From Candidatus Magasanikbacteria bacterium GW2011_GWC2_37_14 (GTDB lineage Bacteria; Patescibacteriota; Patescibacteriia; Magasanikbacterales; UBA922), in NCBI GenBank assembly GCA_000990355.1, contig LBSX01000011.1:1-63794 (forward strand): a DNA stretch of 63,794 nucleotides, read 5' to 3'. The notes under the pieces were generated by a model. The model was not told where the DNA came from. It saw only the letters and a list, made by a program, of their open reading frames with translations, and made no database searches. Below are positions 1-61,944 of this stretch, in pieces; the stretch's first letter is position 1, and each line of letters opens with the position of its first letter. The position numbers and the translations under genes were made by a program.

Positions 1-46
1 AAAGAGTTTTTGCTTTCTAATAAGTTTGTGGAGTAGAACCGCCCGA

Positions 47-81
47 GCAATACATCACTTAACACCTCGATAAGCGGCTCC
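47..81 (+). repeat. Boundary motif copy a (GCAATACATCACTTAACACCTCGATAAGCGGCTCC)
   Basis: Direct near-repeat of 522-554. Related copies at 1920-1948, 2907-2930, 3841-3865 and 5098-5126 share an ACATC-(A/C)-GATAACA core followed by a short dyad. Confidence 0.5.
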
Positions 82-108
82 AGAAAATTTCCTTAATTAT
101 AGTAATAT

Positions 109-137
109 GGAGTAAAATTTTCTTCCGACCCAAATTT
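109..137 (+). promoter_or_regulatory. Conserved AT-rich leader motif GGAGTAAAATTTTCTTCCGACCCAAATTT (copy 1)
   Basis: Near-identical to 1976-2004 (GGAGTAAAAAATTTTCTCGACCCAAATTT). Both copies are followed by a variable hairpin (136-185 here) and then AAACTTC...ACGTT. A -10-like TAGTAAT lies just upstream. Confidence 0.4.
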
Positions 138-270
138 CAATTCTTTCTTTTCTTTATTAACTGTAATAATGAAGAAAGAATTGAAACTTCGCTTCATCGG
201 GAAACGTTATCGGAAATATTGCTTTTTGACAAAATACTTTTAAGGGACTGTCAACCAAAAAAGGTGCAAT

Positions 271-444
271 ATGCACAGCCGAGCCGCGATGGACCAGCTA
301 CGCGCGTACGAGGAAGCCGTACAGTCGCCCTGCAGATGTCGAATCTGCGGACGAGAGTACTATCCTCAAAGGGGGGACGAACCGTGCCATCACGAGGAAG
401 AGACGGCTGGTGAACAGCCGATCGTCGAGGAGGAACACACATGA
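271..444 (+). CDS. 57-aa Cys/His/Glu-rich micro-ORF in G+C-rich insert (MHSRAAMDQLRAYEEAVQSPCRCRICGREYYPQRGDEPCHHEEETAGEQPIVEEEHT)
   Basis: ATG at 271 is preceded by AAGGTG (4-nt spacer). TGA lies at 442-444 and a 12-bp G+C hairpin follows at 454-483. The ORF is below the 60-aa cut-off of the supplied track. Coding status is unproven. Confidence 0.3.
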   Translation: MHSRAAMDQLRAYEEAVQSPCRCRICGREYYPQRGDEPCHHEEETAGEQPIVEEEHT

Positions 445-453
445 CGTCCCACG

Positions 454-483
454 GGCGAGGCCGACACCACGTCGGCGCTCGCC
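454..483 (+). terminator. G+C hairpin closing the insert (GGCGAGGCCGAC-ACCAC-GTCGGC(G)CTCGCC)
   Basis: 12-bp stem with one bulge, read directly. There is no U-tract, because the right arm of the 21-bp inverted repeat follows immediately. Confidence 0.4.
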
Positions 484-521
484 CAGTCCCTTAAAAGTAT
501 TTTGTAAGAAAAAAAGAAAAA

Positions 522-554
522 GCAATACATCCGATAACAGCCGATATGCGGTTC
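522..554 (+). repeat. Boundary motif copy b (GCAATACATCCGATAACAGCCGATATGCGGTTC)
   Basis: Direct near-repeat of 47-81. Its first half is also part of the right arm of the long inverted repeat. Confidence 0.5.
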
Positions 555-558
555 AAAA

Positions 559-597
559 ATAGTGCCCACTGAATTTTAATGGTGGCACTATTTTTTT
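559..597 (+). terminator. Rho-independent terminator
   Basis: ATAGTGCCCAC...GGTGGCACTAT stem followed by TTTTTTT (591-597). Confidence 0.6.
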
Positions 598-651
598 CAC
601 CCAAATTTTGGCCTTTTCTTTTGGGTGATAAAATGGTAAAATATATGTGCT

Positions 652-1077
652 ATGCAAGTATATAAAACTAAAATAAAGAAATTTCCTGGCACACAGTTTC
701 ACGAAGTACACGGACCGGCTTTCGGCCTTTATACCGAAATCAAAAAGAAAACAAAACGCCGAGTATATGTTAGGTCGGCGTATTTTAATAAAGATAAGAT
801 ATTCCTTGATTTGTTCTGGCATCATCTATTTGAAAAGTCTAACTGGCGGGATAGAGTCAGACGCATGAAGTATTTCGCTTGTGCTATTGAACTCATCCAA
901 AAATCACACTTTGAACCAAAAACAAAGGAAAACCCAAACAAACAAGGCGAAATACTTCATCGCTTTTATGGCACTACTGCAGAGAATGAGTTATTTTATG
1001 TACAAATCAAGGAAGACAAGAAAAAAGATCAAAAGTTTTTGATTTCAGTATTTCCATCAGATGGTGGTATGGAATAA
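652..1077 (+). CDS. Hypothetical protein, 141 aa, basic
   Basis: Clean ORF with host-like AT-rich codon usage. No motif I can assign. An extended -10-like TGGTAAAAT lies just upstream. Confidence 0.6.
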   Translation: MQVYKTKIKKFPGTQFHEVHGPAFGLYTEIKKKTKRRVYVRSAYFNKDKIFLDLFWHHLFEKSNWRDRVRRMKYFACAIELIQKSHFEPKTKENPNKQGEILHRFYGTTAENELFYVQIKEDKKKDQKFLISVFPSDGGME

Positions 1078-1144
1078 AATAAAAAAAGACCCTCCGCTAA
1101 GTGTGGTGTATAAACCACGGCCGAAAGCCTTTTTCTAAATATAT

Positions 1145-1152
1145 TGTATAAT
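1145..1152 (+). promoter_or_regulatory. Extended -10 element TGTATAAT
   Basis: Consensus extended -10, about 70 nt upstream of G+C-rich element copy 1 and 275 nt upstream of the GNAT start. Confidence 0.45.
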
Positions 1153-1220
1153 ATCTTTAAAACAATGTCAAGATGTGTCTGTGGACGAAAAGAAAAGGCC
1201 AAAACTTCGCATATCGGCGT

Positions 1221-1393
1221 ACGTTGTGACGGAATCACTCGCGCGAGCTCGTGTATTTCCGTCACAATGGGGCGCGCTTCCAGCGTTGTTGCGCTCCATC
1301 ACTCGCTCCGCTCGTGACTGGTCGCTACATCCCGCCATCCCATAAGCCTGTGGGCTTCTGGTCTGACGGGACGTCGCATAAGCGCGCCCCATT
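1221..1393 (+). ncRNA. G+C-rich structured element, copy 1 (candidate novel leader RNA or cassette-associated repeat)
   Basis: Identical to 2115-2290 except for a 3-nt indel. Contains a TTGTGACGGAA/TTCCGTCACAA hairpin, a 12-bp long-range helix (1266-1277 with 1382-1393) and a CCATAAGCC-TGTG-GGCTTCTGG hairpin. Strand assignment is tentative. Confidence 0.5.
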
Positions 1394-1426
1394 ATCTGAA
1401 ATTTTTTGTCCCTTAGCGCAACTAAC

Positions 1427-1903
1427 ATGGAAAATATAAAACTGCGACAATTTGAGGAAAAAGACAAAGAGGCTACCTACAATCTCCATATTGAGGGCTT
1501 GAAACAATCCGAAAGTTTTATCGATGATCCAAAAGCCAGAGAACAGCTTGACCAAGACCTGAAAAAGATTCGGGAAGAATATATTGATAGTGACGGAGAA
1601 TTTTTTGTAGCCATAATTGATGATAAAGTAGTAGGCATGGGCGCCTTGAGAAAAGTAGATGACATCACTGCCGAAATAAAAAGAATGAGAGTTAAGCCTG
1701 AGCTTCAGGGCAAGGGAATCGGCGCCTTAATTTTGGATAAGCTAATCGAAAAAGCAAAAGAGTTAGGCTACAAAAAATTGCTTTTGGATACATCGATAAA
1801 ACAAATTGTCGCACAAAGATTATATGAGTCGCGTGGTTTTAAGGAAAGTAGGCGAGGAGAAATATATGGCCAAGAAACTTTATACTACCAACGCGATATT
1901 TAA
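1427..1903 (+). CDS. GNAT family N-acetyltransferase
   Basis: Acetyl-CoA-binding motif region RMRVKPELQGKGIGALILDKLIEKAKELGYKKLLLDT...LYESRGF. The ATG at 1427 is preferred over the non-ATG ORF start at 1406. Confidence 0.85.
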   Translation: MENIKLRQFEEKDKEATYNLHIEGLKQSESFIDDPKAREQLDQDLKKIREEYIDSDGEFFVAIIDDKVVGMGALRKVDDITAEIKRMRVKPELQGKGIGALILDKLIEKAKELGYKKLLLDTSIKQIVAQRLYESRGFKESRRGEIYGQETLYYQRDI

Positions 1904-1919
1904 CACGAAGGGACAAAAA

Positions 1920-1948
1920 ACATCAGATAACAACGCATATCTGGCTCC
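1920..1948 (+). repeat. Boundary motif copy c (ACATCAGATAACAACGCATATCTGGCTCC)
   Basis: Contains the 6-bp dyad CAGATA-N8-TATCTG. Homologous to 47-81, 522-554 and 5098-5126. Confidence 0.5.
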
Positions 1949-1975
1949 AAAATTTTTCATTATTAGAATTAATAG

Positions 1976-2004
1976 GGAGTAAAAAATTTTCTCGACCCAA
2001 ATTT
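1976..2004 (+). promoter_or_regulatory. Conserved AT-rich leader motif (copy 2)
   Basis: GGAGTAAAAAATTTTCTCGACCCAAATTT. Followed by a TTTTCATCCC...GGGATGAAAA stem enclosing about 75 nt, then AACTTCAGATGATGCGTAAACGTT leading into copy 2 of the G+C element. Confidence 0.4.
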
Positions 2005-2114
2005 TCATCCCTTAGTTTTGATGAAAGTTTAGGCGGAGATAATAATACAAAGCATTGTCTGAAAGCAAAAGTTTATACTGCTAAGTCGGGATGAAAACTT
2101 CAGATGATGCGTAA

Positions 2115-2290
2115 ACGTTGTGACGGAATCACTCGCGCGAGCTCGTGTATTTCCGTCACAATGGGGCGCGCTTCCAGCGTTGTTGCGCTCCATCACTCGC
2201 TCCGCTCGTGACTGTGGGTCGCTACATCCCGCCATCCCATAAGCCTGTGGGCTTCTGGTCTGACGGGACGTCGCATAAGCGCGCCCCATT
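2115..2290 (+). ncRNA. G+C-rich structured element, copy 2
   Basis: Same sequence as 1221-1393 plus TGG inserted after ...CGTGACTG. Ends 33 nt before the ATG at 2324, the same spacing as copy 1 to the ATG at 1427. Confidence 0.5.
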
Positions 2291-2323
2291 GGACGAAATT
2301 ATTAAATCAAATTTTTTAATTAT

Positions 2324-2878
2324 ATGAATAACAAAGCTCTGAGAGCCCTTTTCCTGTACAATGGAATATTTGTAGGTGCCGCTGCCATGCTCGGTCCATT
2401 GTATGCTATTTATGTTGTGAAGTTTGTCGACGGTGTGACGGCCGTGAGTATTTCATGGGCAGCGTTTCTTGTTTCAACTTCAATATTCACATACATAGTT
2501 TCCAGGAAAGGTGACGGAATAAAAGAAAAAGAATATTTACTGCTTACTGGATATATTGTTAGAATATTGAGTTGGATTTTGTTGATTTTTGTCCACAATT
2601 TGACGTCATTAGTGTTGGTTCAAATTTTATTAGGTTTTGGTGAATCGCTCGGCACACCTTCTTTCAACGCATTGTTTGCTGATCATCTGGACAAAAATAA
2701 ACACATCAAAGAATATTCCAACTGGTCACTAATCGCAAATTTGACTTCCGCGGCAGGGATACTTGCCGGAGGATCAATTGTTAATAATTTTGGCTTTAAG
2801 GCATTATTCTTGTTTATGTCTGCTCTTTCGCTTGTTGCTTTCTTTGGTATATTATTGAAACCAAGAAAATTATTATAG
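2324..2878 (+). CDS. MFS-like polytopic membrane protein, half-size (184 aa)
   Basis: About six hydrophobic segments and MFS-like loop motifs (VSRKGDGIKEK, GESLGTPSFNALFADH). The length suggests a fragment or a half-transporter. Confidence 0.5.
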   Translation: MNNKALRALFLYNGIFVGAAAMLGPLYAIYVVKFVDGVTAVSISWAAFLVSTSIFTYIVSRKGDGIKEKEYLLLTGYIVRILSWILLIFVHNLTSLVLVQILLGFGESLGTPSFNALFADHLDKNKHIKEYSNWSLIANLTSAAGILAGGSIVNNFGFKALFLFMSALSLVAFFGILLKPRKLL

Positions 2879-2906
2879 CAAAAGGAACAAAAAATTTGAT
2901 TTAATA

Positions 2907-2930
2907 ACATCGCCCAACACTCGATATCCG
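2907..2930 (+). repeat. Boundary motif copy d (ACATCGCCCAACACTCGATATCCG)
   Basis: Aligns with 51-76. CTCGATATC (2919-2927) pairs with GATATCGAG (2980-2988). A partner ACATCAGATATCGAG lies at 2974-2988. Confidence 0.4.
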
Positions 2931-3045
2931 CAAGGGCTAAAGCCACATTTCGATTCCGTTTCACTTCATTGAAACATCAGATATCGAGAAACAATGTACA
3001 ATATTACTCAAGTTTGATAAACGATAAATAATTTAAAGATAAAAT

Positions 3046-4089: not shown

Positions 4090-5043
4090 ATGACTTATCT
4101 ATCACCAATTGTAAAAGCTCGTTTGGAAGAGAAACTAAAAAAACTCAACAAACTTCGTCCCCTGCCAAAATCTGCGGTGCAGAAACTTCGAGAAAAATTT
4201 CAAATTGAAATGACTTACAATTCAAACGCAATTGAAGGGAACTCTTTAACTTTAAAAGAGACATTTTTGGTTATTAACGAAGGCTTAACAGTGAAAGGAA
4301 AGCCATTAAAGGATCACTTAGAAGCAAAAGACCACCATGCTGCGTTGGAATATTTATATGACTTAATAGACAAAGACAAAAAACACACTGTTTCTGAAAT
4401 GCTTATAAAAAATTTACATCAAATTATTCTACAGGAAACCGATAAGGAGTGGGCTGGTCGGTACAGAAACGCGAATGTAATTATTGGCGGTGCTGACCAT
4501 ACCCCGCCAGATGCGCTACAAGTACCAAATTTAATGCGAGATTTAATTACTTTACTAAATTCACAAAAAAACAAGCTGAATATTGTTGAACTTTCTGCTT
4601 TACTACATCATAAATTAGTTTACATTCATCCATTTTTTGACGGTAATGGCAGAACAGCACGCTTGACGATGAACTTGTTTTTGATGCAAGCTGGGTATCC
4701 ACTCGTGGTAATTATGAAAACCGACCGGAAAAAATATTATGATGTGCTGGATAAAGCGGATAAAGGCAAATATGAACCGCTGATCAAATTTGTCGCTCAA
4801 TCTATAGAACGCTCGCTTGATATTTATCTCAAAACTTTAACACCTGCCACCACAAAACAAGAAAAATTTGTATCGCTGACTGAAATATCTAAAACCACGC
4901 CTTTTTCCGCCAAATACCTAAACCTGCTTGCAAGACAAGGAAAATTAGAAGCATACAAAGAGGGTCGTGATTGGTTAACTTCCAAAGGAGCAATCGAACG
5001 ATATTTGAAAAACAGAACCAGACAACGAAAAATTTCAAAATAA
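4090..5043 (+). CDS. Fic family protein (AMPylase/adenylyltransferase-type) with C-terminal HTH
   Basis: Canonical Fic motif HPFFDGNGRTARL. The C-terminal segment LTEISKTTPFSAKYLNLLARQGKLEAYKEGRDWLT resembles an excisionase/MerR-like DNA-binding domain. Confidence 0.9.
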   Translation: MTYLSPIVKARLEEKLKKLNKLRPLPKSAVQKLREKFQIEMTYNSNAIEGNSLTLKETFLVINEGLTVKGKPLKDHLEAKDHHAALEYLYDLIDKDKKHTVSEMLIKNLHQIILQETDKEWAGRYRNANVIIGGADHTPPDALQVPNLMRDLITLLNSQKNKLNIVELSALLHHKLVYIHPFFDGNGRTARLTMNLFLMQAGYPLVVIMKTDRKKYYDVLDKADKGKYEPLIKFVAQSIERSLDIYLKTLTPATTKQEKFVSLTEISKTTPFSAKYLNLLARQGKLEAYKEGRDWLTSKGAIERYLKNRTRQRKISK

Positions 5044-5097: not shown

Positions 5098-5175
5098 ACA
5101 TCATATAACAGCGTGTATGCTGTTCCTCTTCGCTACACCCATATACTGACGCACATCGCATAAGCGCGCCCCATT
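5098..5175 (+). repeat. Truncated element: boundary motif fused to the 3' end of the G+C-rich element
   Basis: ACATCATATAACAGCGTGTATGCTGTTCC followed by ...TCGCATAAGCGCGCCCCATT. The last 22 nt are shared with copies 1 and 2. It lacks the 5' partner of the long-range helix and ends 29 nt before the ATG at 5205. Confidence 0.5.
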
Positions 5176-6047: not shown

Positions 6048-6587
6048 ATGAAAAATTTTTTAAAAAAATACAAATTCACGCTAATTCTAATATCAATAGC
6101 TTTGATACTATATTTGGGAATTGTTTTGATAATTTCAAACCTGCCTGCCCTGCCTACCGGACAGGTAGGCGGCAGGCAGGTTTCAAATCCTAAAAATCAA
6201 AGGATTGCCACACCTCGCTCGGGCGAGGTTCGCAATGACAGTGTAACCAATAGTCCAACCATCCCCCACCCTGAACCAGAATTTAAAAATCCAATTACTT
6301 TAAAAGTAAATGATGAGGAATACAAAATTGAATTGCAAGACAAGATGACAGTTTATGGTTTAATGCAGGCGCTGTCGGCTAGTTCAATAAAACCATTTAT
6401 CTTTACTACTATAGAATACCCTGGACTAGGACAATTTGTAGACAGTATCAACGACCTAAAAAACGATCGGCAAAATGGAAAATATTGGATTTATTATTTA
6501 AATGGCCAGCCCGCTCAAATCGGCATTTCTAATTACCTTTTAAAATCTAATGATTTAATTGAATGGAAATATGGCACATCATTTTAA
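6048..6587 (+). CDS. DUF4430 (transcobalamin-beta-like) domain protein, membrane-anchored
   Basis: N-terminal transmembrane helix. C-terminus GLGQFVDSINDLKNDRQNGKYWIYYLNGQPAQIGISNYLLKSNDLIEWKY fits the DUF4430 pattern. Start moved to M33 (ATG 6048) after the riboswitch. Residues LPALPTGQVGGRQV...IATPRSGEVRNDS are encoded by palindromic repeats. Confidence 0.7.
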   Translation: MKNFLKKYKFTLILISIALILYLGIVLIISNLPALPTGQVGGRQVSNPKNQRIATPRSGEVRNDSVTNSPTIPHPEPEFKNPITLKVNDEEYKIELQDKMTVYGLMQALSASSIKPFIFTTIEYPGLGQFVDSINDLKNDRQNGKYWIYYLNGQPAQIGISNYLLKSNDLIEWKYGTSF

Positions 6588-8140: not shown

Positions 8141-8662
8141 ATGAAAAAATACTTAATTCCTGTTTTATTAATCGTTTTGGGTTTTTCTGCTCGACTACTT
8201 CCTCATCCAGCAAATTTTGCCCCAATTGGCGCCATTGCTTTATTTGGCGCTCTTTATTTGCCAAAAAAATATGCTTTGATTGTACCAATTATCGCCATGT
8301 TCATTTCGGATATTTTTATTGGCTTTTATTCTTGGCAAATAATGCTAGCAGTTTACACTAGTTTTGTTTTAATGGGTGTAATTGGTTTGCTAGTAAGAAA
8401 CAAAAAATCATTTTCAACAATACTTGGTGGAACTTTACTTGGTTCTGTTTTATTTTTCTTAATAACTAACTTTGCAGTTTGGGCTTTTGGTACAATGTAT
8501 GCTCATAATTTTTCTGGTTTAATCCAAAGTTATACCATGGCCATTCCTTTTTTTAAAAACAGTTTATTAGGTGATATTTTTTATGTCACAATTTTGGTTG
8601 GCAGTTATGAACTCCTTAATTTGACAAGCAAATTTAAAAATAGTATTCTTCAAAAGGTATAA
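8141..8662 (+). CDS. Small polytopic membrane protein, candidate substrate-capture (ECF S-component-like) transporter
   Basis: About six transmembrane segments and the motif LLPHPANFAPIGAIALFGALYL. Third gene behind the B12 riboswitch. The family call is inferred from context. Confidence 0.45.
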   Translation: MKKYLIPVLLIVLGFSARLLPHPANFAPIGAIALFGALYLPKKYALIVPIIAMFISDIFIGFYSWQIMLAVYTSFVLMGVIGLLVRNKKSFSTILGGTLLGSVLFFLITNFAVWAFGTMYAHNFSGLIQSYTMAIPFFKNSLLGDIFYVTILVGSYELLNLTSKFKNSILQKV

Positions 8663-8685
8663 CATCTTCCCTTTGGGAGGTTTCC

Positions 8686-9024
8686 ATGGAGTTCGTAGCA
8701 ACTCTCAGATGGGGCACGGATAGGCTGACCGTCGAGGTTGACCACACCGACGACCTTGGTGGTCTGACGAAGGAGCAACTCTGCCAGGCGATCGAAAAGG
8801 CGGCGGCCAATTTTTTCACCGCGAATGACCAGTACCCGCTGTTCATCAAGCGCCAGAAGGATGGCACGCTCAAGTACCCGGCAATCTATACGCCGGTACT
8901 GTTCGTCGAAGCTCTCGAAGCGCTCTTCTCGCGCAGCCTCTCGGAGCAAATCCCGCTCAAGCCCCAAGCCGACCCTGACAGCCCGCGTGCGCATGATTGC
9001 TTCCTCGCCGAAGCCAGCGGCTAA
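8686..9024 (+). CDS. Orphan 112-aa protein encoded in a G+C-rich island
   Basis: GGGAGG lies 6 nt before the ATG. 36/60 G+C at 8701-8760 versus about 32% in the host. A hairpin follows at 9041-9064. No recognisable domain. Confidence 0.55.
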   Translation: MEFVATLRWGTDRLTVEVDHTDDLGGLTKEQLCQAIEKAAANFFTANDQYPLFIKRQKDGTLKYPAIYTPVLFVEALEALFSRSLSEQIPLKPQADPDSPRAHDCFLAEASG

Positions 9025-9040
9025 CTCCGCCCTGTCGACC

Positions 9041-9064
9041 CCTCCCGACCAGTTTGTCGGGAGG
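9041..9064 (+). terminator. G+C hairpin after the island ORF (CCTCCCGAC-CAGTTT-GTCGGGAGG)
   Basis: Perfect 9-bp stem with no strong U-tract. The host AAAAACACCCC...GGGGTGTTTTT hairpin (9086-9153) follows. Confidence 0.45.
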
Positions 9065-9163
9065 CTGTGTGACTAAAGTTATACCAAAAACACCCCGTCC
9101 CTCGTTTACTTCTCAATAGCTGGGAATTAAACCAAGGAGTTTGGGGTGTTTTTTATTTTTATA

Positions 9164-10860: not shown

Positions 10861-11500
10861 AACAACCACCGGCCTTAGGGCCGGTGGCTTTGTTTTTGCC
10901 GGCTTAATCGCCGGCAGGGTGGCGTTTGCTTTAGTTAAGGATTTTGTCGAAGAGAGAGGGTTGTTCTACTTCGTTGTGATGTTCTTGGTGAGTGACGTAA
11001 CGACGGATGACATACTCATCAATGCCAATTGTTGAAACAAAGTAACCTCTAGCCCATAATGATTCTTTCTCGTACAACCCATGTTTACGTTTAATCTTTT
11101 TCTTAAGCCAGGCTGAGGATTTACCTTTGATAATTTGCATGGTATACGAGATTGAATCGCGTGGTGTGGTTAAGAGACACATGTGTATATGGTCTTCTTG
11201 AATATTAAGCTCAATTATCTCCCAATGTTTCCATTTGCAAATTGACTCAAATATTCTTCGTAGTTCTTGTTTGATCTTCTCTGCCCCCAATACTTTACCA
11301 CGGTATTTAGGTGTCCACACTAGATGGTACTTTAAATCGTAAAAACAATGTGATAATGTACGGATAGTACGTTTGTGTTGTTTCATAGACGTATGAATTG
11401 TTAGTTACTAAAGCCACCCTGCCGGGTGGCTTTAGTATACGACGTTGTCTTCAAACGTACACCCCAGCTACGCTGGGGGTTTTTAGGATAATAAAAAACC
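10861..11500 (-). mobile_element. IS200/IS605-family element carrying tnpA only
   Basis: The Y1 transposase ORF is flanked by subterminal hairpins: CCACCGGCC..GGCCGGTGG and GCCGGC..GCCGGC at 10866-10915, and AAAGCCACCC..GGGTGGCTTT and CCCCAGC..GCTGGGG at 11410-11480. Exact ends are not determined. Confidence 0.7.
10931..11386 (-). CDS. tnpA: IS200/IS605 family Y1 (HUH) transposase TnpA
   Basis: Motifs YHLVWTPKYR, the HUH motif HIHM in EDHIHMCLL, and a catalytic Tyr region YVIRRYVTHQE. Typical size of 151 aa. Confidence 0.9.
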   Translation of the reverse strand: MKQHKRTIRTLSHCFYDLKYHLVWTPKYRGKVLGAEKIKQELRRIFESICKWKHWEIIELNIQEDHIHMCLLTTPRDSISYTMQIIKGKSSAWLKKKIKRKHGLYEKESLWARGYFVSTIGIDEYVIRRYVTHQEHHNEVEQPSLFDKILN

Positions 11501-21453: not shown

Positions 21454-22668
21454 TTAATGTTTCCACCACTTCCTCATTTCTCGCCAACTTACTCTTCTTA
21501 TTTCTTTTATCTTTTTCCTTTTTATTTTTAACTGGTCAAAATTTTTATAAAGTTCTCCTAAACCTTTTAAAACTTGTCTATCAAACAATAAAAAATATAC
21601 AAACTTCTTTAATTCATACCATTTTATAAACGGCAAGTCAAGTAGATAATTTTGCCAATACTCATTTTTTATTAAAGTCATTAAATGATTTTTGTAACTG
21701 TGATATTTTACCCAGGATGACTGTTGTTTTTTATTGGCAATAGCGATTGAATCACCAAGATTTTCTGGACCAGCTGCCGAACGATCGTGATATGCAACGG
21801 CATTTAACAATACATACGCTTTGTGCCCGGCCAAACGTAAACGATAAGCCAAATCCACATCTTCTTTATAAGAACCATAAGTTTCATCAAACAAACCAAT
21901 CTCGTCAATTACCGATTTTCTAAACATTGGCAGAGCGCCAGAAACTCCGAAAACTTCTGCACTGTCATTGCGAGTCACGCCCGAGCGTGACGTGGCAATC
22001 CCCTGCTTCATCGGGATTGCTTCGTCAGCCTTTTTGTCGGCTTCCTCGCAATGACACGATGACCAATCTTCGCCTGCGTTTAATTCAACCACTCGTCTAT
22101 TCCTTAAAACCTTTAAGCCAAGGGTGTCAATTTGGTTGGTAAAACTTTTTTCAATGTCCCCCTCTTTCCAAGAGGGGGTAGGCCTGCCCGACATGCCGTC
22201 AAGGCAGGCGGAGGGAGTTGCCGAGGTTTGCCCAAACTCCGGCAAACTCTCCCGGCCTGTGGGCCACCCTCTCTTGGTAAGAGAGGGACAACTAAAATCC
22301 CATTTCATTAATCTTGGACTTACCACTGCTACTTCACTACTACTATTCATAAATTCAACCAACTTTTCCAAACAATCTGGCATTAAAAACATGTCTTGAT
22401 TAAGTAACAATACATATTCTGTTTTACAATCCACAATCAACTGATTATGACCACCAGCAAAACCTTTATTTTCTTTATTGATAATTAATTCATATTCAAC
22501 AGGAAAATTTTGTAATTCAATTTTTATTTTTTCTACCGTATCATCTGTAGAAGCATTATCTAAAATAATTAATTTATAATTATTAAAAGTCTGTTTTCTT
22601 AGAGAATCAAAAAGATACGGAATATATTTGTTACCGTTCCAAGTGAGTAAGTGTATTGCTAGTTTCAT
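21454..22668 (-). CDS. Family 2 glycosyltransferase carrying about 220 nt of in-frame palindromic-element insertions
   Basis: GT2 motifs are LTWNG...LIILDNASTDDT and YKEDVDLAYR. The middle (GWPTGRESLPEFGQTSATPSACLDGMSGRPTPSWKEG... CHCEEADKKADEAIPMKQGIATSRSGVTRNDS) is encoded by repeats at about 22159-22290 and 21964-22055. Confidence 0.8.
   Translation of the reverse strand: MKLAIHLLTWNGNKYIPYLFDSLRKQTFNNYKLIILDNASTDDTVEKIKIELQNFPVEYELIINKENKGFAGGHNQLIVDCKTEYVLLLNQDMFLMPDCLEKLVEFMNSSSEVAVVSPRLMKWDFSCPSLTKRGWPTGRESLPEFGQTSATPSACLDGMSGRPTPSWKEGDIEKSFTNQIDTLGLKVLRNRRVVELNAGEDWSSCHCEEADKKADEAIPMKQGIATSRSGVTRNDSAEVFGVSGALPMFRKSVIDEIGLFDETYGSYKEDVDLAYRLRLAGHKAYVLLNAVAYHDRSAAGPENLGDSIAIANKKQQSSWVKYHSYKNHLMTLIKNEYWQNYLLDLPFIKWYELKKFVYFLLFDRQVLKGLGELYKNFDQLKIKRKKIKEIRRVSWREMRKWWKH
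21964..22055. repeat. GTCATTGCGAG...CTCGCAATGAC palindromic element (about 90 bp family)
   Basis: Same family as 37535-37611, 47167-47250 and 50631-50724, with a partial copy at about 6195-6245. Shared core GGCAATCC...GGATTGCTTCG. Confidence 0.8.
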
Positions 22669-33122: not shown

Positions 33123-33285
33123 GTGTTTTCAACTATTTATAATAATTTTATAAACACTTGAGTCACCCTTGGTCCTCCAAGGCCAAGGTGCTCCTAAGTT
33201 AATAGGAAAAGAACGAGAAAGAAAGAACGTGGATTATTTTGCCCCGGAGCTGGGGCACAAGGTGGGATGGGGAAAGGCCTTGTCG

Positions 33286-34197
33286 TCAGGGCTGTTGATC
33301 GCGTTCGACGCTGATCAAGGTCGGAGCGGCATCTTTGAGTTTGCCATCCCCGTATGCCTCGACAACCGTAGCCATAGGGAATCGATCTTGGTCTATCGGT
33401 AAGCGGTAATGAACGAGCACATAGTTGAACCCGACTATGTGAACTTGTTCCACGCTCGTCCGAAGCAAGATCTCGTCGGGGTTGTTTTTCCACAAGGTCA
33501 GCTGCCAATCGTGGTGACTGATGTTGTAAAATATTACCCCGTAGAAAAGCGTGGAGTTGTTGAGCACGATGACCGGTTGGCCGAGCAGGTTCTGGTCCAG
33601 GTCCACCCAGTCCAGGTCTCCGGGTTCGTTTTCGGGATTGCGCCGCGGAAGCTCGAGCACCATCTGCATTTCTTCTTTTTCGAACTTCCATAGGTAGTGC
33701 GAGGTCAAGGCGTAGACCTTGCCCTCGACCTCGTACCAAACGAGTACCCGCTCGTTCACGGGCAAGTTTTTCTCGTTGCCCGGGAATACACCTTTACACA
33801 TGGACCCAAACGACGACAAGGTGTAAAGTCGTTCAGCTTTGGGCAGCTCGATCCATTCGTTGTTGATCTCGAAATGGTCTTCGAACTTGTAGGTCATTTC
33901 TTGCGACACCTCGATCTTTTGGCCACTCTGCGTCGTGTAGGTCAAGATGCGGTAGAACCTGTCTGGAATTTGGCTGGCTCTGAGAACCACCGGTTCTCTG
34001 TTCCAATCCAGGTAAGTCATCACCGGCTTCAAGCGCCGGGGCACGACCCAGTTCGAGTTGTCCTTCGGGCCGTGCAAGGGCACGACCCAGGACTCGTTCT
34101 GGCCGGTCAGCTCGAAGCCGCGATTGACCATGGTCGAACCGCAGCCACCACACACCAGCGCCAAGCCCAGGATCACGAGCGCGACGAACGTCTTCAT
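33286..34197 (-). CDS. Orphan secreted/lipoprotein-like protein (303 aa) in a G+C-rich island
   Basis: GGAGG lies 5 nt before the ATG. Signal peptide MKTFVALVILGLALVCGGCG. 39/60 G+C at 33601-33660. Hairpin GCCCCAGCTCCGGGGC after the stop. No recognisable domain. Confidence 0.7.
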   Translation of the reverse strand: MKTFVALVILGLALVCGGCGSTMVNRGFELTGQNESWVVPLHGPKDNSNWVVPRRLKPVMTYLDWNREPVVLRASQIPDRFYRILTYTTQSGQKIEVSQEMTYKFEDHFEINNEWIELPKAERLYTLSSFGSMCKGVFPGNEKNLPVNERVLVWYEVEGKVYALTSHYLWKFEKEEMQMVLELPRRNPENEPGDLDWVDLDQNLLGQPVIVLNNSTLFYGVIFYNISHHDWQLTLWKNNPDEILLRTSVEQVHIVGFNYVLVHYRLPIDQDRFPMATVVEAYGDGKLKDAAPTLISVERDQQP

Positions 34198-34453
34198 GAC
34201 GTCCTCCGTTTGCTGTACCCCACACGCCAGTGCAGGACAGCATAGCGAACATTAAGAAACAAAGCAAAGGCTGTTTCGAAGCCTGTTCCTCTTTGTAAAA
34301 GAGCGAAAAAAGTGCTCAACAAAACAATTTTTTCGCTTTTTTACAGCTTAATTTTAAACAGTTCATTATAGCACAAAAAAGACCTTTTGTCAAGGCCTTT
34401 GTGCACAGTTGATAATAAATTTTGGCTTAAATTAGCTGTTTCTGGATTAACAG

Positions 34454-45723: not shown

Positions 45724-46041
45724 ACTTTTCCCCATTTTTCCCCACGTACTACCATTATAATCCACTTGGCTAGATAAAGCAAGGGTTTTATCCCACTTTA
45801 TCCACAGCGTAAAAGGCCTACGGCCTTACGCTACAGGCACCCTTCCTCCCCCTGCCCGAGATGGAGGTTAGGAGGGCGTGGGAGAAACCTCTTAAGTCTT
45901 TATCAATTGCCTATCCGGGCAAAATGAATATTAATAGTTTAGCGTAAAAAAATTATAAGGCGTTGACAAACCGAACAAAACAGCGTAGTGTATTTAGCAG
46001 TAGTCGACCGCCACCAAAAACAACGCAAGCCGGGGGATTCC

Positions 46042-46383
46042 ATGACAAAGCTGATGCTGGACCTGATTGCCCTGTTCGTACTGCTCCTGAAGGGCGAGGC
46101 CGACCGCGACGCGTTCGACGACAAGCTCAACGAGTACTTCCTGGCCAAGGCCGAGGCCGATGGCGCCACCGCGGGCCACACCGAGACACTGGAAGTGCCC
46201 GCCGCGCCGACCCCGGCCAACCTGACCGCCGACGGCATGGACGCGCCGGTCGAAGCCACCGACGCGCCCGAGGCCGAAGCCGCCGAAGCCGAAGTGCCCG
46301 TCGTGCTCGACGAAGCGCCCGCCGAGGTCGCCGCCGAAGAAGCGCCCGTCGCCGAGGCCACCGAGGCCACCGTCGTCGCGTAG
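46042..46383 (+). CDS. Orphan 113-aa protein with N-terminal hydrophobic helix and Ala/Glu/Pro-rich low-complexity tail, in a G+C-rich island
   Basis: TTGACA-17 nt-TAGTGT at 45965-45993 and GGGGGA 6 nt before the ATG at 46042. 44/60 G+C at 46141-46200. Hairpin GCCC-TTCC-GGGC directly after the stop. The track ORF starts earlier (45988). Confidence 0.5.
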   Translation: MTKLMLDLIALFVLLLKGEADRDAFDDKLNEYFLAKAEADGATAGHTETLEVPAAPTPANLTADGMDAPVEATDAPEAEAAEAEVPVVLDEAPAEVAAEEAPVAEATEATVVA

Positions 46384-46644
46384 GCCCTTCCGGGCTGAAG
46401 GATCACCAACCCTCAGCTGAGTGGCGATCCAACGCGACATGTTCTGACTACACTCGTAAATGAAGGATACTTGGCGGTTGACTGAATTTACGAGCCCAAA
46501 TGGGGGGATGGAGGGAGACGATGAACCGGAGGGTTCAACGTCATGTTCGAGGCAGATGTTCGTCGTCTGTCTCCGTTCCAGTGAATATTTTTAAAAAGTA
46601 TTTAGTGGAAAACAAAAAATCTACCAACTAGGTAGATTTTTTGT

Positions 46645-48147
46645 TTATATAATAATTTTCCTTAGACTTCTTTGATACTTAATCGCAAAGCGATGAGCTT
46701 CATCACGTACACGAATTAATAGATCTTTATTACTATTTATCCATTTAACAATTTCTCTATTTCGTAATTTCGAAATTTTCGGATTTCGTACATATATAAA
46801 ATCGTTCTTTTTTCTTTCTGGTCCTTTAGCTATGCCAACAACTGGTATTGTTTGTCCCCTCCTGCCCGAGGAGGGGTGACCCAACGTCGCAGTTGGGTCG
46901 GGGTGGTGGGAGAGAATTTTACAAACTCGATTTACTTGTGGCACTCCCCCATCAACCAAAATTACTTGGGGTATTCCCCACTCGTTGTGCTTAAGACGCC
47001 TCTCAATAACTTCGGCAAGACAATCCACATCACTTTGTCCCACAACAGTTTTAATTTTAAATTTTCGATATTCTTTCTTATTTGGTTCACTATTTTCAAA
47101 CACTACCATACTACCAACTTTTCCAGAGCTTCCTAAATTTGAAATGTCATACCCTTCAATACGCATGTCATTGCGAGCCTCGCTCGAGCGAGGCGTGGCA
47201 ATCCCTTGCTTAGGTGGGATTGCTTCGTCGCTAAGGCTCCTCGCAATGACAGGTGACTCGACAAAACTTTTATTTAGAAGCGCAATATCTTGAATTTTTT
47301 GTAAATTTTTAATTTGATCACGCAATCTTCCTGCTTCTTCAAACTCGTGATTTTTAGAAGCCCGCTTCATGTCGTACTCTAAATTTTTTAATAAACTTTT
47401 TTTCTTACCATTCAAAAATTGCACTAACGGCTTAATTACTTTCTTTTTGTATTCGGCCGAACTTATTTCTCCAGTGCATACACCCAAACACTGACCTAGT
47501 TGATAATAAAAACAAGGTTTTTTTGGTAGAGACGCAAAATTTTGCGTCTCTACGCGAGGTATACATGTAGAAATATAAAATAATTTACGAAGCAAGTTTA
47601 TCATTTCTTTGGTTTTAAGACCTGGATATGGACCAAATAATAACCCCCCTCGCCCCCCTTTACCAAGGGGGGTAAGTGAACGTACTTTTTTCCCCCCCTT
47701 ATTAAAGGGGGGTTGGGGGGTTGTTGGCAATTTCAATTCATGCTCACGAACAGTTAAAACTTTAGGAAATTTATCATCAGTAATAACAATATAATTCCAA
47801 CTTTTATCATCTTTCAAATCAACATTGTATTTTGGCTGAATTTTTTTAATGGTGTTTGCTTCCAAAATTATTGCTTCTAGTACAGAATCTGTTTGAATAG
47901 TTTTAATATCTACTACTTCATGAATCATTTGTTCAATCGGACGTCTAACAAGCGTCATCCCCGCGTAGGCGGAGATCTTATTTGGCTGCAAGATTCCCGC
48001 TTTCGCGGGAATGACGCCACGAAAATAACTTCTCACTCTATTTCTCAAACTCGTCGCCTTGCCCACATAAATCAATTTTTTTTTGATATTATAAAAAAGA
48101 TAAATACCGGAACGATCTGATAAATTTTTTAGTTTATTTTCTAACAT
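46645..48147 (-). CDS. uvrC: Excinuclease ABC subunit C, interrupted in frame by at least five palindromic elements
   Basis: GIY-YIG motif SGIYLFYN...IYVGKATSLRNRVRSYF, UvrBC motif and Endo V-like region. Repeat-encoded stretches are [83 protein letters not shown] and HPDPTATLGHPSSGRRGQ. Confidence 0.9.
   Translation of the reverse strand: MLENKLKNLSDRSGIYLFYNIKKKLIYVGKATSLRNRVRSYFRGVIPAKAGILQPNKISAYAGMTLVRRPIEQMIHEVVDIKTIQTDSVLEAIILEANTIKKIQPKYNVDLKDDKSWNYIVITDDKFPKVLTVREHELKLPTTPQPPFNKGGKKVRSLTPLGKGGRGGLLFGPYPGLKTKEMINLLRKLFYISTCIPRVETQNFASLPKKPCFYYQLGQCLGVCTGEISSAEYKKKVIKPLVQFLNGKKKSLLKNLEYDMKRASKNHEFEEAGRLRDQIKNLQKIQDIALLNKSFVESPVIARSLSDEAIPPKQGIATPRSSEARNDMRIEGYDISNLGSSGKVGSMVVFENSEPNKKEYRKFKIKTVVGQSDVDCLAEVIERRLKHNEWGIPQVILVDGGVPQVNRVCKILSHHPDPTATLGHPSSGRRGQTIPVVGIAKGPERKKNDFIYVRNPKISKLRNREIVKWINSNKDLLIRVRDEAHRFAIKYQRSLRKIII
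47167..47250. repeat. GTCATTGCGAG...CTCGCAATGAC element inside uvrC
   Basis: 84 bp, read through in frame. Nearly identical over its first 50 nt to 50631-50680 in uvrA. Confidence 0.85.
47953..48016. repeat. CGTCATCCCCGCG...CGCGGGAATGACG element inside uvrC
   Basis: 64 bp, in frame. Same family as 49463-49527 (uvrA), 37929-37995 and 57946-58010 (intergenic). Confidence 0.85.
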
Positions 48148-48359: not shown

Positions 48360-51149
48360 CTATAAAACACGCTTTAGGTATTCACCAGTGTAACTACCTT
48401 TTTTACAAGAAACTTCTTCTGGTGTGCCAGTTGCTACCAATTCTCCGCCCTTATCGCCACCTTCAGGTCCAAGATCAATAATCCAATCAGCACATTTAAT
48501 TACATCCAAATTGTGTTCAATTACCATGACAGTATTACCTTGATTAACTAAACGCTCTAACACGACTAATAATTTTTTTACATCTTCATAATGCAAACCA
48601 GTAGTAGGTTCATCCAATAAATACAATGTTTTGGTGGTACCGTGTTTAGCCAATTCACGCGAGAGTTTGATGCGTTGAGCTTCGCCACCCGACAAAGTTG
48701 TAGCCGATTGTCCCAAAGTTAAATAATCCAAACCAACTTCATTTAGAATTTTCAATTTATCATAAATCATCGGAATGTCTTTAAAAAATTCCTCAGCATC
48801 TTCAATAGTCATGGCCAACACTTCGGCAATATTTTTTTCTTTAAAATATATGTCCAGAGTTTCTTGATTAAATCTTTTGCCTTTACAAATATCACAAACA
48901 ATTTCTACACTTGGTAAAAAATGCATTTCTATTTCCAAAGTACCACGACCACTACAATTCTCGCACCTACCACCACTAACATTAAAGCTAAAACGCCCAG
49001 ATTTAAAGCCTTTCATTCTGGCTTCGGGAGTTTCGGCAAACAATTCACGAATATGATCATAAGCTTTGGTATAAGTAGCCGGGTTGGAACGCGGAGTACG
49101 ACCAATTGAACTTTGGTCAATGGTAATCATGCGATCCAAATATTCTGTACCGGTTAAACTTTTATGCTCTCCCACTGGTTTATGCATTCGAAATAAACGA
49201 TTATTTATTTCTTTGTACAAAATATCGTGCATTAGGGTAGATTTGCCCGATCCTGAAACACCAGTTAAACAAACAAAACGTCGCAAAGGTATTTCCACAC
49301 TAATATTTTTTAAGTTATGTTCAGTTGCTCCTTTAATTTTTAATTTTGGAGTAGCCGCATCAACTTTTCGTCTCTTTTCGGGAATGGGAATTTTTATTTC
49401 TCTACGCAAATATTTTCCTGTAAGGGATTTTGCCGGGTCACCAAAAATTTTACAATCAATGGCGTCATCCCCGCGTAGGCGGGGATCTTTTTTTGTTTGT
49501 AAGATTCCCGCTTTGGCGGGAATGACGCTAATAAGATTTTCTTTAGTTCCTGAATATACAATCTCTCCCCCATGTTTACCTGCTCCTGGACCAAAATCCA
49601 CTACCCAATCACTAGCCAAAATTGTGTCTTCATCATGTTCTACCACAATTATAGTATTACCCACATCACACAAATTTCGTAATGTTTTTACCAAACGATC
49701 ATTATCTTTTTGATGGAGTCCAATAGTTGGTTCGTCTAATACATATAAGGCGCCAACTAATTTAGTCCCCACTTGTGAAGCCAAACGGATGCGCTGGGCC
49801 TCTCCACCACTCAAAGTTCCGGCACGTCGATTTAAAGTTAAATAATGTAAACCTACGTCATACATAAATTGCAAACGATTGGCAATTTCTTTTAAAACTG
49901 CTCCAGCAATTTCTTGTTCTCGGGGTGGCAAATTAATTTCTGTTTCCGCAAAAAATTCTCTGGCTTCGGCAATTGGCAAACTAGTAACTTCAAAAATATT
50001 TTTTTCATTAACTTTTACACTTAAAGCATTTTCGTTTAGACGTTTACCCAAACATTTAGGACAAACTTCTTCGGAAAATAATTCTTTGGTGCCCAAACCT
50101 GTACAATGTTCACAATAACCATAGGGGCTGTTAAAACTAAACAAACGTGGTTCAATTTCGGGAAAACTAAAACCATCATTAGGACAAGAATATTCTGTAC
50201 TAAAAATTTGTTCTTTTGGCTTACCCTGAGCAGAGTCGAAGGGATAAATAATTGTGCAAAGACCTTTTGATAATCCCACTGCTGTTTCCACTGCCTCGGC
50301 AAGACGCCCAATAATCTCGAGCGACGAAGCGAGAGATCCCTTTTCTTTGGGTTTTAAATCATCTTTACTACTATCTTTCTTTAATGCAATTGCAGTTGCT
50401 TTGGAAAGGGATTCCTCGTCGCCTGTGGGCTCACTCGGAATTACCAGACGATCAACAACCACTTCAATAGTATGTTTTTTATCTTTTACCAAAACAATTC
50501 TTTCCTTTAAACTTTTCATTTTTCCGTCTACTCTTACTTCAAGAAAACCTGAATTATACAAATCATAAAGCATTTGATAATACTCCCCTTTTCTTCCTCG
50601 TACCACTGGAGCAAGTATTATCAATTCACTGTCATTGCGAGCCTCGCTCGAGCGAGGCGTGGCAATCCCTTTCTTAGTCTGGGATTGCTTCGTCAGCACC
50701 TCCCCGGCGCTTCCTCGCAATGACGCACTAATTCGCTCCACCATTTCGTCGGTTGTCATTTTTTCTATTTTTGTACCACAAAGTGGACAATGAGGTTCAC
50801 CAATTCTGGCATATAAAACACGAAGATAGTCATAAATCTCGGTAATAGTCGCCACTGTAGAGCGCGGATTGGCACTATGAGCTTTTTGATCAATGGAAAT
50901 TGCCGGCGATAAACCAGTTATTTCATCAACATCGGGTTTTTGCATACCACCCAAAAATTGCCGAGCATAGGCAGACAATGATTCTATATATCGACGTTGA
51001 CCTTCGGCAAAAATTGTATCAAAAGCTAGAGAAGATTTTCCCGAACCAGAAAGCCCTGTAAACACAATCATTTTGTTACGTGGCAACTCTAAATCAACAT
51101 TTTTTAAATTATGTTCTCGTGCGCCTTTAATAATAATTTTATTTTGCAT
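48360..51149 (-). CDS. uvrA: Excinuclease ABC subunit A, with two in-frame palindromic-element insertions
   Basis: Two ABC modules ([14 protein letters not shown] and [10 protein letters not shown]; LSGGEAQR twice) and zinc fingers. Start moved to MQNKIII (51149) because upstream codons lie in a repeat. Confidence 0.95.
49463..49527. repeat. CGTCATCCCCGCG...GGCGGGAATGACG element inside uvrA
   Basis: Encodes [22 protein letters not shown] in frame. Confidence 0.85.
50631..50724. repeat. GTCATTGCGAG...CTCGCAATGAC element inside uvrA
   Basis: Encodes [33 protein letters not shown] in frame. Confidence 0.85.
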
Positions 51150-61870: not shown

Positions 61871-61944
61871 GCACGCCTAGCTCAGTTGGTTAGAGCATCT
61901 CGTTTACACCGAGAGGGTCGAGGGTTCGAATCCCCCGGCGTGTA
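61871..61944 (+). tRNA. tRNA-Val (anticodon TAC)
   Basis: Hand-folded cloverleaf. Acceptor GCACGCC with GGCGTGT (one G-U pair), D stem GCTC/GAGC, anticodon stem TCTCG/CGAGA with loop TTTACAC, and T loop TTCGAAT. No encoded CCA. Confidence 0.85.

Follow-up and report, generated by a model that had tools for sequence, protein, structure and literature searches.

How does a small G+C-rich open reading frame (ORF) come to sit at the tip of a long AT-rich inverted repeat? This question was raised by positions 47-597 of a 63,794-nt stretch of DNA (hereafter, the window) from Candidatus Magasanikbacteria bacterium GW2011_GWC2_37_14 (contig LBSX01000011.1), an uncultivated groundwater bacterium of the Candidate Phyla Radiation (CPR)/Patescibacteria. 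An earlier note on this DNA had proposed that the region is a self-contained unit, in which a G+C-rich module was dropped into the tip of a hairpin. Our analysis suggested a different answer: the region is probably a stretch of a cassette array of an apparently undescribed, integron-like gene-capture type, and the element in question is likely one mobile gene cassette of this array, at positions 207-1223. The setting of the array is chromosomal and of the Candidatus Magasanikbacteria (CPR/Patescibacteria) type. In integrons, attC sites are imperfect hairpins with R''/L''...L'/R' boxes, RYYYAAC/GTTRRRY cores and extrahelical bases; the folded bottom strand of attC recombines with a duplex attI site, and replicative resolution follows. 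These terms are used below for the corresponding parts of the array. The sequences compared with the window come from few environments and are designated by L numbers; L001 is the same scaffold in the public assembly, from which 9.3 kb upstream of the window was taken (window position = L001 position - 9349).

The inverted repeat and its insert were found much as they had been described. A repeat finder located paired arms at 223-250/484-511 (28 nt, 93% complementarity) and 206-227/517-538 (22 nt, 91%), with perfect pairing of 229-250 with 484-505; the whole repeat covered approximately 45 bp, with an A-rich bulge of about 10 nt in the right arm. The G+C content was 60.9% in the insert (251-483) against 28-30% in the arms and a mean of 36% in the window. 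The left arm ends in GGGACTG and the right arm begins with CAGTCCC, each directly touching the insert, so that deletion of 251-483 would leave a loop-less palindrome. The 57-codon ORF with its AAGGTG motif and the G+C hairpin behind it were present, and the boundary motifs (46-64 and 521-539, 84% alike), the leader (76-151 with its flank, 72% alike to 1943-2018), the hairpin (132-149/172-189) and the terminator-like hairpin with its T-run all lay at, or within a few bases of, the positions given for them. Folding of 100-600 as RNA yielded -195.5 kcal/mol (z = -11.8; none of 100 shuffles was as good) with one long stem closing the insert, and folding of 186-552 as DNA yielded -88.8 kcal/mol (z = -10.3), both far beyond chance. 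Rfam 15, which has no attC covariance model, matched only a tRNA-Val in the whole window at the gathering score, and nothing significant in 1-3000 at E values up to 10.

The limits of the unit did not hold. BLAST against related contigs indicated that 201-1225 is one homology block, 77% identical in L098, L116 and L120, whereas in L119 and at a second place in L120 just 201-246 (98%) and 488-1225 (87.5%) were conserved. In L119, the left arm was 98% identical and the sequence from the right arm onward 87.5% identical over 738 nt; the apex alone differed. The homologues of 207-1223 had four different upstream and three different downstream neighbours, and the homology stopped at ...ACG^TT or ...ACA^TT. 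Because the homology breaks at (G/A)^TT on both sides with changing neighbours, we regarded 207-1223 as the unit; the crossovers would lie at 206^207 and 1223^1224, within ...ACG^TT.... The region 47-597 thus spans three pieces: the attC-like site of a preceding lipase cassette (52-206), the payload and both ends of the next cassette (207-537), and the start of the attC-like site of this second cassette, which runs to 1223. The first boundary motif, the leader, the hairpin and the AAACTTC...ACGTT parts of the earlier note all belong to the site at 52-206, and the likeness to 1920-2114, which had been read as one hairpin scaffold with two payloads, is a likeness between the attC-like sites of neighbouring cassettes. 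The arm at 41-63 pairs with the start of the lipase cassette, TTAAGTGAAATATTGCTCGGGC, in a 22-nt inverted repeat. Furthermore, the attC-like site of the GNAT cassette (about 1920-2117) was 93% identical to L021 4977-5177. Since the recombinases of the two genomes are only 55% identical, this indicates that the site was exchanged between genomes.

The window begins within the array, not at its edge. A gene for a 281-aa tyrosine recombinase lies about 2.5 kb upstream of the window on the opposite strand and diverges from the array, and approximately 14 co-oriented small ORFs all point away from it. They encode DsrE-like, SHOCT, GDSL lipase, GNAT acetyltransferase, DUF202 and Fic/DOC proteins, an MFS fragment, the 57-aa and a 141-aa ORF, and others. 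The array extends to about window position 9100, where pyrG starts on the other strand.

The AT-rich inverted repeat represents the pairing of the two ends of cassette 207-1223 itself. The pairing begins exactly at the half-sites (207-217 with 527-537) and runs inward to the payload, about 35 bp past the R-box half-sites. Such end-pairing was observed in all 21 cassettes examined in nine contigs, over 21-79 alignment columns and with a different sequence in each; A.A and A.C mismatches (GAAAT vs ACATC) recurred in 20 of them. It was also present in gene-less units, namely in a 44-nt hairpin, TTGTGACGGAAT...ATTTCCGTCACAA, that opens every copy of a G+C-rich element, and an almost empty hairpin cassette of 104 nt was found in L119 (7352-7455).

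This ORF-less G+C element (about 65% G+C) occurs in 4.5 copies, at window 1224-1391, 2118-2288 and, partially, 5100-5173, and at L001 6866-7066 and 8505-8705. Its long and short forms differ by a 33-nt indel. The element is bounded by GTT^GTGACGG...CCCCA^TT and consists of the empty hairpin followed by a stem, AATGGGGCGCGCTT...AAGCGCGCCCCATT. Elements of this type stand directly after the attI-like site in 6 of 13 genomes (this one, L010, L012, L019, L021 and L022), and may be selfish ORF-less cassettes or a structural part of the platform.

A regular grammar was found along the array. Each payload is preceded by ...ACG (or CCA) and then TTnnnnGAAAT (R' type), and is followed by ACATCnnnnAA-C (R'' type); this array has eight such starts and six such ends (ACATCnnnnAA). 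Within a cassette, the four variable bases of the start are complementary to those of the end (TTAAGTG/CACTTAA, TTATCGG/CCGATAA, TTATCTG/CAGATAA). In addition, a box of 9-11 nt after the end-site is the exact complement of a box before the next start-site, for example GCCGATATGCG (540-550) and CGCATATCGGC (1208-1218). We collected 28 end/start pairs from this array and related contigs. In 15 of them, hand-picked, 94.3% of the cells of the L boxes were paired, with compensatory double changes at 8 of 11 positions; none of 500 shuffles matched this pairing, and slid controls reached 17-39%. The spacing is one base from AAC to the box on the 5' side and four bases from the box to GTT on the 3' side, which implies a folded site with three extra unpaired bases on one strand. 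The core of the end-site fits R-Y-N-Y-A-A-C in most sites. Across nine contigs, 35 of 36 starts and 32 of 33 ends had the same orientation relative to the recombinase gene, so that 67 of 69 sites follow the one-orientation rule of integrons, and the blocks end at (G/A)^TT as at the G^TT junction of integrons. Conserved structure with free sequence, AAC/GTT cores and extra bases on one strand are hallmarks of attC.

The attC-like sites range from 80 to about 1000 nt. The smallest (L119 809-887, approximately 80 nt) reads ACATCATATAAC-A-CGGCATATACG...CGTATATGCCG-AAAC-G^TT; this site and the 104-nt cassette of L119 are potential minimal substrates.

An attI-like site, ...AGTTGGnATAAAGGTAG^TT, was located about 110-125 nt from the start codon of the recombinase gene. 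Thirteen genomes were compared: the site is clearly conserved in 11, and more diverged in L021 and L022. To the right of its TT, the sequence differs between genomes; judged from sequence, the site thus has the constant left half and the variable right half of an integron attI. Between the start codon and this site lies a conserved palindrome, TATACCCC-n3/4-GGGcTATA (L001 6780-6805; at the same place in L010, L013 and L016), followed by two direct repeats, TTTTAGC. The palindrome and the repeats could serve as an operator and as accessory binding sites; class 1 integrons have a LexA box and DR1/DR2 repeats in comparable positions.

The array recombinase is a Phage_integrase/SAM_4 protein. Among proteins of solved structure, the integron integrase VchIntIA was its best relative, at 178 bits; XerA reached 161 and XerD 103. 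Residues 13-183 align to VchIntIA 12-186 and residues 199-276 to 242-319, with 15 residues replacing 55; in length and collinear alignment the protein matches XerA 5hxy. The closest relatives (47-79% identity) were from Candidatus Magasanikbacteria and other Patescibacteria metagenome-assembled genomes. Below about 47% identity, relatives were found in DPANN archaea and Flavobacterium, with site motifs at background level in their flanks, and a search for viral carriage of the recombinase found only relatives of 30-32% identity.

We gathered further cassettes with the same arms by a metagenome scan for the arm and from genome loci of related recombinases. At least six unrelated payloads, each with a small ORF, were found between such arms: orthologues of the 57-aa ORF (P1; L098, L112, L116 and L120), an 82-aa membrane protein (P2; L016), and ORFs of 65 aa (P3; L098 and L116), 87 aa (P4; L119 and L120), 90 aa (P6; L122) and 77 aa (P7; L125), the last two in diverged arm variants. 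More members of the arm family are present in L095, L124 and L106, and the arrays of L098, L116 and L120 hold two or three same-arm cassettes each. Every one of these six payloads consists of a ribosome-binding site, a small ORF and a G+C hairpin. The idea that one scaffold carries different payloads therefore survived, on evidence other than that first given for it, namely identical arms around unrelated inserts elsewhere. The payload module is likewise separate from the AT-rich scaffold, but G+C-richness is not a property of the scaffold, as the ORFs of P2-P4, P6 and P7 have 44-52% G+C. The G+C content at third codon positions (GC3) was 0.43-0.65 in the payloads (0.64 in the 57-aa ORF) and 0.24-0.36 in host genes. 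Compared with the L098 orthologue, the arms and untranslated regions (UTRs) were 94-99% identical (right arm, 98.9%) and the ORF 72%, so the cassette frame is either strongly constrained or homogenised. Scaffold and payload are separable. Of the routes by which payloads may have changed, homologous recombination between same-arm paralogues is the simplest, and capture at the hairpin tip the most interesting.

The 57-codon ORF has the same length in the window and in L098, with no frameshift between them. The two differ by 12 synonymous and 18 non-synonymous codons, 24 of the 48 base differences being at third positions, which gave a non-synonymous rate (dN) of 0.25 and a synonymous rate (dS) of 0.99 (dN/dS about 0.25). 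Cys21, Cys23, Cys26, Cys38 and His40 were retained. On this dN/dS ratio and the retained Cys and His residues, we concluded that the ORF is a real protein-coding gene. A single-sequence AlphaFold2 (AF2) model of the protein predicted a helix and a small knuckle, with an acidic tail that is disordered; its predicted local distance difference test score (pLDDT) of 67 makes it too weak to search for related folds. The peptide had no homologue besides itself among 5.8e9 clustered proteins, and no match in Pfam or NCBIfam. The features of the region are collected in Table 1.

Table 1 Features at and around the inverted repeat, in window coordinates.
Feature	Position	Strand	Basis or remarks
3' end of the GDSL-lipase ORF, payload of the preceding cassette	1-36	+	Gene calls; TAG stop at 34-36
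Right-end arm of the lipase cassette, with R''-type half-site ACATCACTTAA-C (52-63)	41-63	+	Half-site equals the first boundary motif of the earlier note
attC-like folded site of the lipase cassette	52-206	+	Row of the covariation alignment; leader homology
Parts of this site: R'', L'', leader, apical hairpin, L', spacer GAAAC-G	52-63, 66-76, 109-137, 132-189, 190-200, 201-206	+	
One complete cassette	207-1223	+	Homology ends here in L098, L116, L119, L120 and L016
Left arm, including R'-type half-site TTATCGGAAAT (207-217)	207-250	+	98% identical in L016 and L119 despite other payloads
Payload, with Shine-Dalgarno motif AAGGTG (261-266), ORF (271-444) and G+C hairpin (453-484)	251-483	+	60.9% G+C
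57-aa ORF	271-444	+	Predicted N-terminal helix, CxCxxC...CxH knuckle, acidic tail
Right arm with A-rich bulge of about 10 nt and R''-type half-site ACATCCGATAA-C (527-538)	484-538	+	Half-site equals the second boundary motif
L'' box GCCGATATGCG of the cassette's own attC-like site	540-550	+	Perfect 11-bp complement of 1208-1218
Terminator-like hairpin and T-run	555-597	+	Different but equally paired hairpin there in L016 and L119
Apical part of the attC-like site: CACCCAAATTT (598-608), inverted repeat 603-622/1188-1207 enclosing the 141-aa ORF (652-1077)	598-1207	+	
L' box CGCATATCGGC (1208-1218), unpaired GTAC (1219-1222), G1223 closing the cassette	1208-1223	+	
Next unit: ORF-less G+C element copy opening with the empty hairpin TTGTGACGGAAT...ATTTCCGTCACAA	1224-1391	+	
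attC-like site of the GNAT cassette (1392-2117)	1920-2117	+	

On the array grammar, the covariation of both boxes, the cassette boundaries and the modularity of the payloads, all of them observed, we built a model in which single-strand folding, the exact bond cleaved and the strand used are proposed by analogy. A cassette consists, in order, of an R' start, a body ending in R'', an L'' box, a variable apex, an L' box, three extra bases and a G, followed by the next TT. The recombinase beside the array would cut at (G/A)^TT, using folded sites. In single-stranded DNA, the end-pairing stem would provide the R box and the neighbouring hairpin the L box; within the array, the R box would come from the cassette's own ends rather than from its neighbours. 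Once a cassette is excised as a single-stranded circle, one stem would pass directly into the other, forming one attC-like site with the payload as a far loop. Cassettes would be excised and then inserted at the attI-like site as in integrons. Excision of the present cassette would create a circle junction of ...CATATCGGCGTACG with TTATCGGAAATATTGC... (...GGCGTACG with TTATCGG...) and leave a deletion junction of ...CATCGGGAAACG with TTGTGACGGAATC... (...GGGAAACG with TTGTGACGG...). The scaffold of arms and attC-like site would be the conserved vehicle, inside which payloads are exchanged or captured. A role of the arms as folded DNA seems to us close to an even call, slightly on the doubtful side.

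Several observations weigh against the integron-like cassette reading. The recombinase alignment skips VchIntIA 187-241, the additional domain of IntI (about 40 residues), which is considered necessary for attC recombination (PMC9668308); according to Messier and Roy (2001), as cited there, this domain around patch III defines the IntI-type integrase, and by that measure the recombinase is not of the IntI type. It passed the NCBIfam XerA model, which carries the name 'tyrosine recombinase/integron integrase' (253 bits, cut-off 220), and failed the integron integrase model TIGR02249 (243 bits, cut-off 265), with a match in two stretches; it could also be the cell's own Xer. Cassettes whose two ends pair with each other over 20-75 nt have not been described in integrons, and the types of mismatch in the arms do not separate DNA pairing from RNA pairing. 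One attC-like site contains the whole 141-aa gene with its own likely promoter, and the terminator-like hairpin inside the site suggests that cassettes may not be promoterless. In addition, mosaic boundaries were seen at an R''-type site (L021) and within arms, neither of which a pure integron model predicts. The 15 site pairs of the covariation test had been selected from the 28 candidates for recognisable boxes, and neither an excised circle nor a cassette-level empty-site polymorphism was found in the same population.

As a rival explanation, the array could be a duplex system resembling dif modules. Xer-type core sites would separate payload segments (D modules) from leader/hairpin segments (C modules), modules would be exchanged by two successive recombinations, and the long inverted repeats would be by-products. 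The sites do alternate in orientation and half-sites next to a segment travel with it, a grammar that matches the C and D modules of PMC13141974; the attC-like segment 1919-2119 recurs by itself in L021, where another payload segment precedes it; a dif-like 11-6/7-11 geometry is seen in the attI-like and R-type sites; and the recombinase is XerA-like, passes the XerA model and has no IntI additional domain. However, every start site has three extra bases, the arms differ in GAAAT vs GATGT, and the leader-side arm varies freely yet stays complementary across the hairpin, which a protein-binding duplex arm would not need. Dif modules invert readily, whereas 67 of 69 sites here share one orientation, and the recombinase gene adjoins the array, diverges from it and has a conserved attI-like site. 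The flanks of L013, L016 and L021 showed no consistent strand or skew switch and no sign of a replication terminus; with these flanks, and 9 kb of the array's own upstream flank, a dif site at a replication terminus was dropped as the main explanation. We consider the dif-module explanation unlikely. The arms may also act mainly as RNA, in a transcription unit at about 110-597 (-10-like TAAAAT in the leader, long 5' UTR, ORF, terminator); pairing of the 5' and 3' UTRs would close the mRNA, as an RNase III site or a hok-type fold-back controlling stability or translation. The terminator-like hairpin follows the right arm, with other sequence and the same pairing in L016 and L119, in every payload variant the stems reach the Shine-Dalgarno motif and the stop codon, G.T pairs that only plus-strand RNA allows were read by eye in the innermost, payload-specific stems of P2 and P3, and P2-P4 and P6 (P1 and P7 excepted) are small, hydrophobic, toxin-like proteins. 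Nevertheless, the repeat always starts exactly at the recombination half-site, with two invariant mismatches, and is also found in ORF-less units; G.T mismatches (7) were not more numerous than the A.C type over 21 cassettes, and the promoter is a consensus guess, as a promoter scan gave no convincing site. An RNA function as the main role is somewhat unlikely, and it could coexist with the cassette explanation.

A model along the lines of the earlier note, in which a pre-existing perfect palindrome (an ORF-less hairpin cassette) was broken at its tip and a foreign G+C-rich gene with its terminator hairpin joined in, by illegitimate repair or a hairpin-tip-specific activity, would amount to de novo formation of a cassette. 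It agrees with conserved arms around unrelated payloads, with the foreign composition of these payloads by GC3, and with their appearance as compact expression units. Short or empty hairpin cassettes exist, but neither the metagenome scan nor the viral contigs yielded an empty copy of these arms. Moreover, next to each payload lie 4-13 bp of additional pairing peculiar to it, which simple loop insertion would not make, and homologous recombination between the two or three same-arm paralogues per array (L098, L116, L120) is simpler. The orthologue retains its high GC3 after dS of about 1; therefore, the payload has long been resident in such arms. We consider insertion at the tip quite unlikely. 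The 331-bp segment 207-537 could also be taken for a miniature inverted-repeat transposable element or small transposon with a passenger gene, being bounded by terminal inverted repeats of about 45 bp and having multiple copies with shared ends. We excluded this very improbable reading, as there is no target-site duplication (202-206 vs 538-542; flanks AAACG and CAGCC) and no family-wide terminal repeat, the repeats differing per cassette beyond the shared 11-mer; all copies lie at the same kind of site in one orientation, and the block boundaries were 207/1223, not 207/537, in three of four comparisons. Finally, the abrupt change of composition at 250/251 and 483/484 might suggest a chimera, in which an AT-rich contig was wrongly joined to G+C-rich reads of a different organism. 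Across both junctions, however, 100% identity was found among six contigs that stem from different samples and independent assemblies (ENA, JGI, Logan) and were built with different assemblers; the junctions are therefore not an assembly artefact. The diverged orthologous cassette in other metagenomes keeps both junctions as well, with an ORF 72% identical in the same arms in four further contigs. As far as assemblies show, the chimera was excluded, and its probability is negligible.

The 141-aa ORF inside the attC-like site is nearly leaderless, with a -10-like box (TGnTAAAAT) just upstream, and is followed by a conserved 3' hairpin motif (1081-1135), which is also present in L126. Homologues of its product number more than 800 (64-97% identity) and are spread over the CPR classes; the protein is assigned to no family. 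As the homologues stand in ordinary contexts, we rejected the protein as an accessory factor of the array. In a Moranbacteria contig (L126 5169-6690), a homologue lies within an insert of 1.39 kb. The start of an ABC-transporter gene is repeated directly on either side of this insert, over 128 nt at 81% identity, and the gene for the 141-aa protein may belong to a separate mobile element.

Other parts of the array and the window were also noted. The cassette at 4090-5043 encodes a Fic/DOC-domain protein with a C-terminal helix-turn-helix, which could have a toxin-like or addiction function stabilising the array. At the far end of the array, a second G+C-rich insert (8656-9125) encodes a 112-aa ORF (8686-9024; GC3 0.74; no family match) and is flanked by GGTATAAC...GTTATACC, that is, AAC...GTT, in the order opposite to that of cassette ends. 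Outside the array, two further compositionally foreign islands were found at 33190-34270 and 45995-46590; one of the two holds a 303-aa minus-strand ORF (GC3 0.75) with a lipoprotein-like N-terminus, and the other an acidic ORF rich in Ala, Glu and Pro (about 46043-46383) at 64% G+C. Families of short G+C-rich hairpin repeats, such as TGTCATTGCGAG...GGCAATCC, GTCATTCCCGCGAAAGCGGGAATC and ACCTGCCTGCCGGCAGGCAGGT, are dispersed over the window, some within ORFs: a first set at 21963-22026, 47166-47229, 50630-50693 and 6184-6243, and other sets at 25157, 37930, 47954, 49464 and 57947, and at 9393, 26323 and 51171. An IS200-like Y1 transposase gene (10931-11386, minus strand) adjoins pyrG and, together with the hairpin repeats, looks like a system of repetitive extragenic palindromes and their associated tyrosine transposase (REP/RAYT type). 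A perfect 37-nt inverted repeat (61994-62030/63468-63504) and a 28-nt one (96%; 62031-62058/63634-63661) flank a 498-aa ORF (61904-63400, minus strand) beside the tRNA-Val gene (61871-61945); the ORF with its repeats may be an insertion sequence or an invertible segment.

In the literature searched, we found no report of integrons or cassette arrays in Magasanikbacteria or other CPR, which is not proof of their absence. Standard integron finders probably overlook the system, since they depend on canonical attC sites and on the C-terminal signature of IntI. We tentatively raise the possibility, short of favouring it, that Magasanikbacteria carry a distinct, undescribed integron-like platform with a recombinase of IntI/XerA grade that has no additional domain, a split site, and hairpin frames holding unrelated, foreign small genes. 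If this is true, the hairpin frames would make visible how cassettes form de novo, and the platform could be an evolutionary intermediate between Xer/dif systems and integrons. The locus combines integron grammar with a recombinase of Xer architecture, and so touches two open questions, the origin of IntI and folded attC from Xer/dif and the making of new cassettes. If the system is active, the additional domain would not be required for an integron-type lifestyle, payload capture could be studied in a natural system, and a gene-exchange platform would be added to the CPR bacteria, whose mobile elements are poorly known.

Among systems with a Xer-type recombinase, the dif modules of Acinetobacter are defined by inversely oriented pdif sites as C and D modules; some of them are ORF-less, and single segments are exchanged between replicons (PMC13141974). 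The present array is similar in its alternating inverse sites and in its two kinds of segment, which carry inner half-sites that covary within segments. It differs in that a single dedicated recombinase adjoins a chromosomal array in a CPR host, whereas pdif are equivalent 28-bp sites (11-6-11) served by host XerC/XerD on Acinetobacter Rep_3 plasmids. Start and end sites here are non-equivalent (starts have three bases more than ends and than the attI-like site, and two arm positions differ), their orientation is near-invariant (one reversed start and one reversed end among 69 sites), and hairpin covariation is strong. The XerS/difSL, XerH/difH and XerA systems likewise have a single Xer-type recombinase with a target site next to its own gene. 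Elements that exploit Xer have one site or are one element, compared with about 14 units here. The cassette start TTATnnGAAAT resembles the XerD arm of Escherichia coli dif, TTATGTTAAAT.

The closest kind of integron is the sedentary chromosomal integron. As in integrons, the recombinase gene diverges from co-oriented small accessory genes, with an attI-like site beside it; junctions are G^TT with ...AAC/GTT... cores (R-Y-N-Y-AAC); attC-like imperfect hairpins keep structure rather than sequence, with extra unpaired bases on one strand; some cassettes are ORF-less, and cassette composition is foreign; and cassettes are common to genomes whose recombinases are only 55% identical. In contrast to integrons, the recombinase has the length of XerA and no IntI additional domain, the two ends of a cassette pair with each other over 20-75 nt, the attC-like sites measure 80 to 1000 nt, with room for a gene and a terminator-like hairpin, different payloads occur in identical arms, and the host is a CPR bacterium. 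We consider an integron-like system with "split" folded sites the most likely description of the array.

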